Source: a virus
Lineage: Duplodnaviria > Heunggongvirae > Uroviricota > Caudoviricetes
DNA: 49,168 nt
Strand: one strand, 5' to 3'
Virus record (IMG/VR): IMGVR_UViG_2565956718_000004
The notes beneath the pieces are model-generated. The model saw only the letters and a list, made by a program, of their open reading frames with translations, had not been told where the DNA came from and ran no database searches. Shown piece by piece: positions 26,035-45,196 of this stretch (within the stretch, counting starts at the first letter, position 1; every line of letters begins with the position of its first letter). Position numbers and translations under genes: made by a program.

Positions 26035-26370
26035 ATGAAGTGGATTGTGATTGATACAGTTATCCAGCCATCATGCGGAATATCTTTTTCAGTCATATGG
26101 AGTAAAATAAAATTAATAATCTGGTATCAATCGGATGCTTTCTTACCTCCTGAAAGTATATTTACACTGACTCACACAGGCATCATGCTCAATAACAAAG
26201 TGCTACCTGTAACCATTTACAACGTAGTACCATTCAATAAAACATTATGGAATTTAATCAAAAACAGCCAGGAATGCCCTACAAATACAGATAACGTATT
26301 GAATGAATGCTTTAATAACCGTTGCACTCTGCAAATATGTCCTTATGGGCTAAAACAACAAAGTCCATAA
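26035..26370 (+). CDS. hypothetical Cys-containing protein in an AT-rich block (moron candidate)
   Basis: 111-aa ORF with RBS AAGGA 7 nt upstream; low GC relative to flanks; opposite strand to the late operon. Confidence 0.4.
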
Positions 26371-26395: not shown

Positions 26396-26615
26396 CAATA
26401 TAAACAGCCCCTCCGGAGAGGGGCTGGAGAGTGGCGCTATGTGCCATTGCATGGTGCCGGGTGCCTCCCGGTGAATTCAGTACCAGCACCTGAATCCGCG
26501 ATTATCCCATATACCTACTCGCTGATTACCCCTCCGCACAGGGGGATTCACCATGCGAAATTTTTTAACAAACTTCCCGCCGGCCAGACAATAATCGCCA
26601 GCCTGAATTATGAGC
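26396..26615. repeat. structured repeat unit, copy 1 (candidate ncRNA element)
   Basis: Starts with hairpin AGCCCCTC-CGGA-GAGGGGCT; shares conserved blocks with copy 2 while paired stems flank unrelated loops. Confidence 0.6.
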
Positions 26616-26868
26616 AACGTGGCATTTTACGGGAAAACTGTTTTCTGCAGTAAAAAGGCCCGCCGGAGCGAGCCTGGAAGGATAGCGGTCATGTGATGCC
26701 GGTTTCCCGGTAACTCAGCATCGGTATCTGAGTCAACGTTTTCTCTACTGGGTCATTTCCGATACGTTCCGCCTTCCGGCAGACTTTCATCACGTCAGAA
26801 AATATAGCACCCTGAGTAACAGGACAGTACTCAGAATTCAGGAAACTGTGACACATCCTGCACAGAAA

Positions 26869-27083
26869 AGCCCCTCCGGAGAGGGGCTGAAGTATAGCCT
26901 AATTTCTGTCTGTCGCATGGTGCCAGGGGCCTCCCGGTAAATTCAGCCTGTCTACTGAATTTGCATGTTCTCTGGATCATACACTTTGCCAGATGCCCCG
27001 CCGCTGAGGGGGATTCACCATGCGATGTAATTTTTAACAAATTCTCCGGCAGCCAGACAATCATCAAGCTGTGGAATTGTGAG
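26869..27083. repeat. structured repeat unit, copy 2 (candidate ncRNA element)
   Basis: Same block structure as copy 1; on the minus strand the 5' hairpin is followed by TTTTCTGTG, i.e. terminator-like. Confidence 0.6.
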
Positions 27084-27254
27084 GTATTTAAAAATTTCAA
27101 CGGGTAACTGATACCCTGCTAATCGCCTGATGCTTTCTTTTTCAGCAACGGGAAAGCAACAACCACACACCCGCCACCAAAACACCATCAGACAGCACCG
27201 ACATTATCCGGCTGCTGAAGTCCACCATCACCACCAGAAACAACAGGAGTGCAA

Positions 27255-27303
27255 CCACAGCTGCTTAGAAGGCAATTGCTCTGTCCGGCTGAGCTAACAA
27301 CGC
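27255..27303 (-). pseudogene. truncated tRNA-Arg(UCU)-like gene (5' half only)
   Basis: Acceptor 5' strand, D-arm GCTC-AGCCGGACA-GAGC and anticodon arm with loop CTTCTAA are present; no T-arm or 3' acceptor strand follows. Confidence 0.4.
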
Positions 27304-27316
27304 ATGATGCAGATAA

Positions 27317-27393
27317 TGGACCGCCATCGGGGACTTGAACCCCGCGCAGCCAGCTTCGAAGGCTGGCGCTCTATCCCGATGAGCTAATGGCGG
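27317..27393 (-). tRNA. tRNA-Arg (anticodon UCG)
   Basis: 77-nt cloverleaf ending CCA: acceptor CCGCCAT/ATGGCGG, D-arm GCTC..GAGC, anticodon stem CCAGC/GCTGG with loop CTTCGAA, T-arm CGGGG-TTCAAGT-CCCCG. Confidence 0.8.
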
Positions 27394-27400
27394 TATGTGA

Positions 27401-27476
27401 TGGTGGCCCTTGCTGGATTTGAACCAGCGACCTGGCGATTATGAGTCGCTCGCTCTCACCACTGAGCTAAAGGGCC
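27401..27476 (-). tRNA. tRNA-Ile2 (anticodon CAU, lysidine type; ileX/ileZ-like)
   Basis: 76-nt sequence GGCCCTTTAGCTCAGTGGTGAGAGCGAGCGACTCATAATCGCCAGGTCGCTGGTTCAAATCCAGCAAGGGCCACCA, close to E. coli ileX. Confidence 0.85.
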
Positions 27477-31851: not shown

Positions 31852-32007
31852 TTACTCCTCAGGTTCGTAAGCTGTGAAGACAGCGACCTCCGTCTGGCCG
31901 GTTCGGATTCGTACCTCGCAGAGGTCTTTCCTCGTTACCAGTGCCGTCACTATGACGGTTAAACAGATGACGATCAGGGCGATTAACATCGCCTTTTGCT
32001 GCTTCAT
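31852..32007 (-). CDS. hok: Hok/Gef family type I toxin
   Basis: 51-aa MKQQKAMLIALIVICLTVIVTALVTRKDLCEVRIRTGQTEVAVFTAYEPEE, the classic Hok sequence pattern. Confidence 0.85.
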   Translation of the reverse strand: MKQQKAMLIALIVICLTVIVTALVTRKDLCEVRIRTGQTEVAVFTAYEPEE

Positions 32008-32160
32008 AGCCTGCTTCTCCTTGACCTTTCGGTCCGTAAGAGGCTAATCTCTATGTGTCGCATAGATATGGCCTCAGATTAATGTTAAGCGTCTTGCAGG
32101 ACGCGTAATGTTAACTGGGGCTTTTCTCTATCTGCCTTTTGGTGTTCATGCCTGAGACAG
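32008..32160. other. hok mRNA leader / expected mok-sok regulatory region
   Basis: Structured region immediately upstream of hok where hok/sok loci carry the overlapping mok frame and antisense Sok RNA; exact sok ends not resolved. Confidence 0.4.
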
Positions 32161-32265
32161 ATAGCCTCAAGCACCCGCAGTCATTCTACTTAACTAAGAT
32201 TTCCCCGCAAACCGTTTTTGTCCGGCACAGTAAATATCCAACTAAACCAATGGCGTTCGCTGTAT

Positions 32266-43366: not shown

Positions 43367-44239
43367 TTCACCCTCCTGAGGGTTGGTGATTAAGGAGTTC
43401 TCCACGGGTGAGGTGGAGTGCGTGCGCCGGACACGGGTGAGCATCCGGCACTGACAGTTTACTGAAAGGATATTTCCCTGAAAAGTCAGACCATAACGCG
43501 AAAGCGCTCGGTGAGGTAGCTGGTTCATAGATAGCCTGTCGTTAAATTTTCGTCGACCGTGCGCTTCCGGTTGTGGCAATCCGCGAAATGGCGCGGCGGT
43601 AAGTATGGCGGGGTTATTCCTTCCCCCGTTGAGGACACCGGGTTGTCAGGTTGACCATACGCTTAAGTGACAACTCCGCTGCAACGCCCTCTGTTATCAA
43701 TTTTCTGGTGACTTTTGGCGGTATCAGTTCTACTCCGTGACTGCTCTGCCGCCCTTTTTAAAGTGAATTTTGTGATGCGGTGAATGCGGCTCAGCGCACG
43801 CGGAACAGTTAAAACAAGCGGTCTTTTACGGGCGTAACGGGAATGCTCTGTATCCGACGTTAATTGTTAACTGGTTAACGTCACCTGGAGGCACCAGGCA
43901 CCGCATCAACAAAGTTCACTTCGGTGATGAAAGGTAGAGAAAATGTTGAATGTAGCTATTGAAAACCAGAACGGGTGGAATTATAGTGCACCTGCACCTC
44001 ATAAAACGGGTGCCGGGCGTGGAAACCCGAAATCATTCACGGCGCATAACCGCGCTCAGGCGGTTTTTTTATGCGTTAAGCACAGCCACATTCGCATTAT
44101 GGTGGGGCGTGCAGGGCAGCCGCAAGGCTGGCCGGGTTCCGTGATGACCGGTATTTCCACCCCTGTACGTCTCACCACCCTTATGGTCGTGGAAAACCTC
44201 GGTGGTGAGTTAATCAAATTCATCGCGGAGGCTGCCATC

Positions 44240-44807: not shown

Positions 44808-44996
44808 ATGGAAACGTCACTACCAAACGTTAATACGTCTGACGGGTGCTTTAATATTGGTGTTCTGCTCAGTAACAGGGATTTCACCGAGGATGCAATC
44901 AATATGAGAAAATATGAACCCTACCTGCTGAATGACAATTCCATACTCTCCAGAATTGCCCTTCTTAAACTCGGTATTTTCGGAGAGTGGCGATGA
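44808..44996 (+). CDS. hypothetical protein (62 aa)
   Basis: 62-aa ORF with RBS GAGGA. Confidence 0.35.
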   Translation: METSLPNVNTSDGCFNIGVLLSNRDFTEDAINMRKYEPYLLNDNSILSRIALLKLGIFGEWR

Positions 44997-45196
44997 ACAC
45001 ATTATTCGTACTCATTTTGACTGTACATCTCAATACTGGTGAGTCGCTTGATGCAATCACCGGCATGTACAACTCAATGAAAGAATGCATGGCTGCCGCA
45101 GCGGAACAGAAAATTCCCGGCAACTGTTATCCGGTCGATAAAGTTATTCACATGGACAATAACGAAATCCCGGCAGGATTAAAAACAGCGCCGTAA
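44987..45196 (+). CDS. hypothetical small hydrophobic protein (69 aa)
   Basis: Overlaps the upstream stop; N-terminal hydrophobic segment. Confidence 0.4.
   Translation: MAMNTLFVLILTVHLNTGESLDAITGMYNSMKECMAAAAEQKIPGNCYPVDKVIHMDNNEIPAGLKTAP

Follow-up and report, generated by a model that had tools for sequence, protein, structure and literature searches.

What are the two similar, structured repeats that lie between the tRNA genes and a nanS-p-type esterase gene, at 26396-27083 of the tailed-phage record IMGVR_UViG_2565956718_000004, a stretch of 49,168 nucleotides that we refer to as the window? A preliminary description had taken them for a candidate novel RNA element present as two tandem units, and had proposed a comparison with Rfam and a search for covariation among homologues. 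In our Rfam scan of the whole window, both repeats matched family RF02076 (STnc100) on the minus strand, at 27053-26860 (138 bits, E = 2e-30) and at 26584-26396 (132.5 bits, E = 5e-29). These matches are far beyond chance, exceed the family's gathering score of 47 bits and cover the full model (positions 1-206). The two repeats are copies of a known family of prophage small RNA (sRNA) genes, and the element is already known rather than novel. The locus holds three genes of this kind, which we call A, B and C. The RNA of each gene is about 146-159 nt long; its first 110 nt or so form a conserved, structured 5' domain (scaffold), which is followed by a hypervariable cassette (17-26 nt) and by a terminator.

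STnc100 is known from Salmonella and from enterohaemorrhagic Escherichia coli (EHEC), and its members are transcribed and bound by Hfq (PMC5331693, PMC7873438, PMC8550237). In EDL933, 11 copies are annotated; transcriptome reads were seen for every one of them, and a northern blot confirmed one (PMC5331693). EcOnc27, also known as sRNA103, lies just 3' of stx2B and is an Hfq-binding sRNA (PMC7873438, PMC12711010), the binding having been seen by Hfq-CRAC, a cross-linking method (PMC7873438); its overexpression raises the levels of the fimZ and espA transcripts (PMC7873438; PMC12711010). In addition, outer membrane vesicles of Shiga toxin-producing E. coli contain STnc100 (PMC12370729), and we found that the primers of that study match the scaffold of gene C exactly.

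The conserved blocks by which the repeats had been recognized are all present at their proposed positions when both strands are read. A repeat finder recovered them in register at 93%, 91%, 90% and 83% identity, respectively, for the hairpin AGCCCCTC-CGGA-GAGGGGCT (26406-26425 and 26869-26888), block 2 (26449-26480 and 26915-26946), block 3 (26529-26558 and 26996-27025) and block 4 (26562-26596 and 27031-27065). In register, the units are 463-469 bp apart (about 466), not 473 bp, and they are not adjacent, since a third, diverged unit running from 26795 to 26650 sits between them. All three genes are on the minus strand. Gene A (26865..27023, the second copy of the preliminary description; RNA of about 159 nt) consists of a scaffold at 27023-26915, a cassette at 26914-26889 (GACAGACAGAAAUUAGGCUAUACUUC) and a terminator at 26888-26865. 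Gene C (26398..26556, the first copy; also about 159 nt) has its scaffold at 26556-26449, its cassette at 26448-26427 (AAUGGCACAUAGCGCCACUCUCC) and its terminator at 26426-26398. R1, our own scaffold-only model, scored 98.5 bits for gene A and 113.2 bits for gene C. The middle, STnc100-like gene B (26650..26795; about 146 nt) is made up of a scaffold at 26795-26693, a cassette at 26692-26676 (the GACCGCUAUCCUUCC region) and a terminator at 26675-26651.

Gene B was flagged first by the repeat finder, through a 74% copy of the terminator at 26653-26679, and its terminator was also called by the terminator scan. At a relaxed threshold the Rfam model found it at 26824-26649 on the minus strand (30 bits, E = 2.9e-4), and R1 found it at 26795-26688 (59.2 bits, E = 3e-12). 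Its helices are compensated, namely P1 as ACGUGAUG/CAUCACAU, P2 as CUGCC-GGAA-GGCGG, P4 as GACUCAG/CUGAGUU and P5 as CCGG-GAAA-CCGG. When gene B is set beside its counterpart in another prophage (L126), the -10 element and a TCACA half-site are identical, and the RNA body and cassette have also been conserved. The stretch separating the two promoter elements has diverged strongly, and P2 has been rebuilt in the other prophage as GCCUG-UCAG-CAGGC. This is the pattern that would be expected of an expressed gene under selection and, together with a promoter and terminator of its own, it argues for a locus of three genes.

The 5' ends were placed by way of PasD1 and PasD2 of enteropathogenic E. 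coli (EPEC) E2348/69, whose ends have been estimated from RNA-seq coverage (NC_011601 1060260-1060432 and 741157-741328; PMC8550237 Table S6). We mapped these coordinates on the E2348/69 loci and then aligned them with the window units. The estimated 5' end of PasD is the G of GCAUGGUG, 5-7 nt past the -10 element, and both PasD RNAs, by these estimates, begin on the first base of P1 and end where the terminator does; R1 also starts exactly at the PasD 5' coordinates. By this comparison, the RNAs of genes A and C would start near 27023 and 26556. Block 4 is present as had been described, but it lies upstream of these putative starts and so would be promoter DNA outside the RNA, and the boundaries first given to the two units likewise take in promoter DNA. 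The same appears to be true of the first 29 or so positions of RF02076 (positions 1-29 align to window 27053-27024 and 26584-26557), which seem to represent the -35 and -10 elements rather than RNA, because they precede the 5' end estimated for the homologous PasD RNAs.

The promoters of gene A (27031..27060) and gene C (26562..26591) have the -35 hexamer TTGTCT (27060-27055 and 26591-26586) and the -10 hexamer TAAAAA preceded by TGT (27039-27031 and 26570-26562), with a spacer of 17-18 bp. The promoter region of gene B (26801..26851) includes the TCACA half-site (26851-26847) and an extended -10 element, TGcTATATT (26809-26801). The hexamers seen in genes A and C are conserved across 21 distinct upstream sequences. 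Promoter-like sites on the plus strand of block 4 (TTAACA-16-GACAAT) were considered and rejected, being reverse complements of the minus-strand -10/-35 regions; the equivalent hexamers are poor in the upstream sequences of 933W and PasD when read by eye. At the other end of each unit, the minus-strand terminators noticed in the preliminary description were both called terminator-like, along with a third site.

We also found a candidate site for CRP, the cAMP receptor protein. It is TTTTAAATACCTCACA at 27078..27093 on the minus strand, which matches 8/10 consensus positions and is centred about -61.5 from the putative start of gene A. Gene C has a weaker site, TGCCACGTTGCTCATA (7/10, about -59.5, at about 26608-26623), and for gene B the TCACA half-site is read at the equivalent place (site region 26847-26862, minus strand). 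The motif TGTnA-N6-TCACA is centred at -60.5/-61.5 in nearly all STnc100-type promoters (loci L126-L223) with differing flanks, and in most lineages it matches 8-9/10 consensus positions; promoter hexamers and the TCACA site are kept while the adjoining DNA diverges. A position near -61 is the classical one for a class I CRP site, and STnc100-type genes may be under CRP control. The motif was not found in the PasD upstream sequences, which have a near-consensus -35 (TTGACT) instead.

Is the RNA structure itself under selection? The complementarity seen between GCATGGTG in block 2 and CACCATGC in block 3 is a real helix, P1; the AATTCAG/CTGAAT pairing corresponds to helix P4 and the CCCC/GGGG pairing to helix P2, both recovered in minimum free energy folds of the minus-strand RNAs. 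For all three genes, these folds recover the helices and leave the cassettes mostly unpaired (z = -2.6 for A, -2.9 for B and -3.2 for C, more exactly -3.16). The junction is cloverleaf-shaped, but a tRNA-like reading of it was rejected, since the only tRNAs that ARAGORN calls are the two genuine ones (27317-27476). Scanning IMG/VR with a sequence pattern yielded 120 loci with 135 units and 44 distinct RNAs of 156-181 nt. These RNAs are built alike: helices P1 and P2 come first, then a variable insert, P4 and P5, and finally a terminator preceded by a cassette that is about 25-45 nt long and unrelated from lineage to lineage. A separate scan of 596 Gb of genome contigs with the 14-mer CGCATGGTGAATCC, a pattern that is too short, returned only chance matches in unrelated phyla (L005-L124).

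In a MAFFT alignment of 17 diverse members, 88.8% of the cells were paired compared with 81.0 +/- 0.7% after shuffling (0 of 500 shuffles reached the observed value) and 39-50% when the partners were slid, and 21 pairs had changed on both sides. A model-based alignment of 41 distinct scaffolds, a set that includes diverged copies found beside canonical ones, gave 97.7% compared with 87.9 +/- 0.4% after shuffling and 37-47% after sliding; 20 of 25 pairs had changed on both sides, including 7 of the 8 in P1 and all 8 in P4. The latter alignment was fitted to the model and so leans towards it, while the MAFFT result is independent and agrees. The covariation is thus statistically clear for every helix of the scaffold, the proposed stems show compensatory change across the 41 distinct homologues, and the view of a functional RNA whose stems are kept while its loops diverge is borne out. 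The unpaired nucleotides GAAU after P1 and the P5 loop AGGCA are highly conserved even as the stems covary.

The scaffold also appears to contain a pseudoknot: a strand of 6-9 nt just after P2 complements the P4 loop in almost every member, and the sequences involved vary by lineage. Gene C pairs AUCAGC (26526-26521) with GCUGGU (26487-26482), gene B pairs GUAUCGG (26765-26759) with CCGAUGC (26724-26718), and PasD pairs AAUGAUC with GAUCAUU. Other lineages have CUGGUG[A/U/C]/[U/A/G]CACCGG, CAGUUAA/UUAACUG, UAUCAGUAC/GUACUGAUA, AAUGACCA/UGGUCAUU or ACUGAUUA/UAAUCAGU, and there are at least 10 different helix sequences in the family. Each of the 7 pseudoknot pairs shows changes on both sides in the MAFFT alignment, despite four sequences being misplaced by one column. 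As the pseudoknot strand of the AUCAGC group is one column out of register in that alignment, we relied on an alignment-free test, in which each strand was paired with its own loop and with the loops of other members. The energy of own pairs was -8.9 kcal/mol compared with -4.9 +/- 0.7 kcal/mol for permuted pairs among 17 classes, and -8.4 compared with -4.5 +/- 0.43 kcal/mol among 32 classes; in neither case did any of 20000 permutations reach the observed value. Covariation is therefore good evidence for a pseudoknot in the STnc100/PasD scaffold.

Since P4 covaries too, P4 and the pseudoknot either coexist, as an H-type pseudoknot, or alternate. The P4 loop has 1-2 free bases, 6-7 paired bases and 0-2 free bases, a geometry that is sterically feasible, as in kissing loops. 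In one subclass the pseudoknot pairing has turned into a nested 8-bp helix with a minimal P4 (GUGAUAUC/GAUAUCAC and GUGAUACC/GGUAUCAC). In gene A, UCUGGC (26993-26988) faces GACAGG (26952-26947) with one G.A mismatch; a close relative of gene A has the perfect pair UCUGAC/GUCAGG. The RF02076 model has no pseudoknot, and none is described for this family in that model or in the preprint 10.64898/2026.05.13.724894.

The cassettes behave very differently from the scaffold. Those of genes A, B and C are completely different from each other, and at least 12 unrelated cassettes occur on one scaffold among the 44 distinct RNAs. The gene C cassette was found on three different scaffold bodies, which indicates that cassettes are exchanged as units. 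In PasD, the seed UGUGAG and the chimera sites detected by RIL-seq, a method that ligates paired RNAs, sit in the cassette just before the terminator (PMC8550237). The longest complement to any cassette within the window is 11 nt, between CGCCACUCUCC of gene C and GGAGAGTGGCG at 44982-44992 (plus strand); the latter overlaps the GTG start of an open reading frame (ORF) at 44987-45196, and the match is at chance level.

Arrays are common in this family. A scan of the fetched loci with R1 found the unit-middle-unit arrangement in at least 27 other loci, with differing outer units, and there are arrays of four or five scaffold-bearing units (L176:6985-7882, L125:2323-3350 and L180:1158-2920), some of whose units belong to the subclass with the nested 8-bp helix. 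Outside the array, we identified a scaffold-only distant relative at 43775..43909 on the plus strand, between DicF and IsrK (R1 43.1 bits, E = 2e-8). Rfam aligned it to STnc100 over model positions 22-154 only, that is, the scaffold, at 35.6 bits. Like gene B at 30 bits, it is under the RF02076 gathering score, and both are relatives rather than members by Rfam's criterion. It has compensated versions of P1 (AUGCGGUG/CACCGCAU), P4 (GACGUUAA/UUAACGUC), P2, P5 (CCUGG/CCAGG) and the pseudoknot (CAGUUAA/UUAACUG), and it has neither a cassette nor a terminator of its own. The neighboring IsrK has its own promoter, TTGAAA-17-TATAGT, by reading of the sequence. The pair of DicF and scaffold recurs in several phages (Evi, PPompW_* and PhiR42_1). 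The pseudoknot, the arrays, the CRP-like site and the copy beside DicF did not come up in the searchable literature, although the vesicle study (PMC12370729) was not checked for a passage on a pseudoknot.

What, then, would such an array do? It is likely that the locus is a head-to-tail array of three STnc100/PasD sRNA genes whose RNAs depend on Hfq and base-pair in trans with differing seeds. Each gene would be transcribed from a sigma-70 promoter of its own (weak -35, extended -10 and probably a class I site for CRP around -61) and would end in an intrinsic terminator of its own. The RNA would begin at the first base of the 8-bp closing helix P1, which would enclose the domain of about 110 nt formed by P2, P4 and P5, with the pseudoknot predicted to join the strand just after P2 to the P4 loop; the mostly unpaired cassette of 17-26 nt would lie between the scaffold and the terminator. 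Judging from the homologous PasD and EcOnc27, Hfq binding and target pairing would fall to the cassette and the U-tail of the terminator. The RNAs may act in trans on host or prophage mRNAs, and three cassettes would give three sets of targets. The most plausible role of the 5' domain, which is paired from +1, is to stabilize the RNA: stems at the very 5' end are known in E. coli to protect RNA against the route of decay through RNase E and RppH that requires a free 5' end.

Several points weigh against this array of trans-acting sRNAs. The function of STnc100 itself has been called unclear (PMC12370729; PMC7873438), Hfq dependence and targets are attributed to these three RNAs by homology only, and the CRP-like site was recognized only by its consensus match and position. 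The U-tails of the window genes have 3-5 U (UUUAUAUU, UUUUC and UUUUUAC) compared with eight in PasD, and the short tail of gene C and the four U of gene A are poor for Hfq binding. The pseudoknot of gene A is weak, at -1.8 to -3.2 kcal/mol. An exact-complement search of the window found no cassette target above chance, the longest matches being 10-11 nt compared with a shuffle mean of about 10. Finally, the cassette-less element at 43775-43909 suggests that the scaffold may have a role of its own, beyond that of a stabilizer.

Could the units act mainly in cis? Three strong intrinsic terminators, lined up one after another in the late operon's sense direction, might shield the esterase and lysis genes from transcription that has not been modified by Q, for example from a tRNA promoter, with the sRNAs as by-products. 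The array always lies between Q or the tRNAs and the lysis genes, there are three terminator-like sites on the late-gene strand, and the reason for the placement of sRNAs here has been called unclear in a review (PMC7873438). However, a terminator needs only a hairpin and a U-run, which leaves the covarying domain of 110 nt, the private promoters, the -61 site and the diversifying cassettes unexplained, and PasD makes Hfq-dependent contacts in trans. We regard a mainly cis-acting array as unlikely, and such shielding could be an additional role rather than an alternative. Somewhat less probable again is that the pseudoknotted scaffold is the active part, serving as a decoy or sensor that binds a host or phage protein, the ribosome or some small ligand, while the cassette is only a spacer. 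The highly conserved GAAU and AGGCA among covarying stems, the scaffold-only copy adjoining DicF and a fold of a complexity unusual for an Hfq sRNA would fit such a role. On the other hand, the scaffold has no known partner, the seed and chimera sites of PasD map to the cassette and not to the scaffold, the swapping of cassettes between scaffolds as units suggests that cassettes carry function, and gene A tolerates a weakened pseudoknot.

A further proposal is that the RNAs are sponges (anti-sRNAs) in the manner of AgvB and AsxR, titrating sRNAs of the core genome through cassettes that look like mRNA sites. These two occur in the same interval from Q to the lysis genes, paired with STnc100-type sRNAs (PMC7873438), and AsxR abuts the STnc100 copy in 933W, but they are on the opposite strand and belong to different Rfam families, and the chimeras of PasD are mostly with mRNAs. 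The AsxR and AgvB models (RF02703 and RF02702) had no match in the window at the gathering score or at E values up to 5, whereas AsxR was found in 933W as a positive control; we give sponges a small chance. The units might also be remnants of miniature inverted-repeat transposable elements (MITEs) or insertion sequences (ISs), the preliminary description having named a structured mobile element as its alternative, or diverged protein-coding sequence, given that they are repeated, multi-copy in genomes and found in mosaic contexts. We found no terminal inverted repeats or target duplications flanking the units, and the repeat finder returned from the window only terminator palindromes and short chance pairs, with no MITE or IS ends. 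The ORFs overlapping the units (26441-26653 on the plus strand, 26831-27100 and 26689-26856 on the minus strand) had no Pfam match and were rejected as genes; the overlapping ORFs are unconserved, as had been noted. Substitutions follow the pattern of RNA helices and not that of codons, and copy number tracks prophages, making this origin extremely improbable.

The trans-acting array can be taken one step further. The 5' domain (about 110 nt) may form an autonomous module locked by its pseudoknot, a portable chassis that in lambdoid prophages carries interchangeable target-recognition cassettes in apparently CRP-controlled late-region arrays of 3-5 genes and stands alone beside DicF. This idea is tentative, and we think it somewhat more doubtful than probable. 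If so, the scaffold would have a function not described before, whether as a nuclease-proof 5' end or by binding a factor of the host or phage.

The array sits among the late genes of a lambdoid prophage, which Pfam and RefSeq place on the minus strand. On that strand are the Q antiterminator (29971-29150), a DNA methylase (28575-27526), two tRNAs (27476-27317), a small DUF3927 ORF directly upstream of the array (27142..27258; PF13064, E = 5.8e-11), a SASA esterase of nanS-p type (25789-23918) and a holin (23845-23552). ARAGORN calls the tRNA at 27401-27476 as tRNA-Met (CAT), and RefSeq annotates the identical gene as tRNA-Ile; it is of the ileZ type typical of Stx-like phages and is followed by a tRNA-Arg (TCG) at 27393-27317. 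An iraM-like ORF on the plus strand (26035..26370) converges on gene C. It had no Pfam match, and the ORF at the matching locus of E. coli M217 is annotated by RefSeq as anti-adapter protein IraM. The terminator hairpin of gene C lies 35 nt beyond the stop codon of the iraM-like ORF and has no U-run on the plus strand.

Besides STnc100, Rfam matched sok of the hok/sok type I toxin-antitoxin system (32005-32176, minus strand) and, on the plus strand, DicF (43703-43754), IsrK (43994-44070) and the C4 antisense RNA (44095-44182). These are catalogued prophage RNAs and, with the two tRNAs, form a typical lambdoid prophage set. A sub-threshold match to the c4 target site a1b1 (43981-44033), together with the C4 RNA, suggests a P1-like antirepressor control module of the immI type. 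Among E. coli RefSeq records, 461 carry the 731-bp repeat stretch at 99% identity or more, and 2862 of 5426 complete genomes match at least part of it. One strain with this prophage is E. coli M217 (NZ_AP019189, 2776423-2777153).

In conclusion, the preliminary observation is confirmed and its interpretation is partly supported, in that the repeats are functional structured RNAs, but already known ones. The finding re-discovers a catalogued prophage sRNA family and changes little. The corrected gene model, in which the start is deduced from PasD, promoter DNA is taken out of the Rfam model and a strongly covarying pseudoknot is added, may be of modest value for the study of horizontally acquired sRNAs in pathogenic E. 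coli. The family keeps its scaffold and swaps its presumed seed, often in tandem arrays, which predicts several different regulators per prophage. The possible link to cAMP-CRP is testable, and the analysis bears on the question of what makes Hfq-binding sRNAs gather in the interval from the late promoter to the lysis genes in Stx-type phages.

Among known systems, EcOnc27/sRNA103, the STnc100 RNA encoded 3' of stx2B in the Stx2 phages 933W and Sp5, has the same prophage position, orientation, scaffold and terminator type as the window genes. The STnc100 copy of 933W scores 207.7 bits and abuts AsxR on the other strand. The cassette of this copy (ACAGAGAUUAGGCAUAUAC) and the gene A cassette (ACAGAAAUUAGGCUAUAC) are related; those of genes B and C are unrelated to EcOnc27. 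Compared with the EcOnc27 loci, the window has three genes in series with neither stx nor a convergent AsxR or AgvB, and it is iraM that converges. The site, between Q and the tRNAs (or stx) and the esterase or lysis genes on the late-gene strand, is alike in 933W and E2348/69. PasD1 and PasD2 (EcOnc13 in EHEC) share the synteny of Q, DUF3927, sRNA and esterase or holin, with a DUF3927 gene preceding both in E2348/69, and PasD and the window units have the same 5' start at GCAUGGUG and the same architecture of P1, P2, P4 and pseudoknot. PasD is stabilized by Hfq, as seen in northern blots with and without hfq, forms RIL-seq chimeras and has its seed just upstream of the terminator (PMC8550237), and a common origin of PasD and STnc100 has been proposed (bioRxiv 10.64898/2026.05.13.724894). 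PasD differs in being under the STnc100 gathering score, in its P5/P1 junction, in its longer cassette and U-tail of eight U, and in its copies, which are reported as dispersed rather than tandem. Only the 5' part of the window RNAs aligns with PasD; the cassettes are unrelated, and similarity over the whole RNA, including the UGUGAG seed, was not found. In their presumed mode of action the window RNAs resemble PasD, but they are not variants of it.

The geometry of the pseudoknot resembles that of the kissing loop at the dimerization initiation site (DIS) of HIV-1, a hairpin loop of 9-11 nt with 6-7 central bases paired and 1-2 unpaired flanking bases. In the scaffold the loop would instead pair within its own molecule, with a single strand located upstream, as an H-type pseudoknot in a multi-helix junction, and the likeness is geometric only. 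OmrA/OmrB, PrrF1/PrrF2 and Qrr1-5 are paralogous sets of Hfq sRNA genes, some in tandem, each gene with its own promoter and terminator, in which the seed is conserved and the rest varies. In the array described here, by contrast, it is the scaffold that is conserved and the presumed seed that varies, and the paralogues would thus be expected to have different, rather than redundant, targets.

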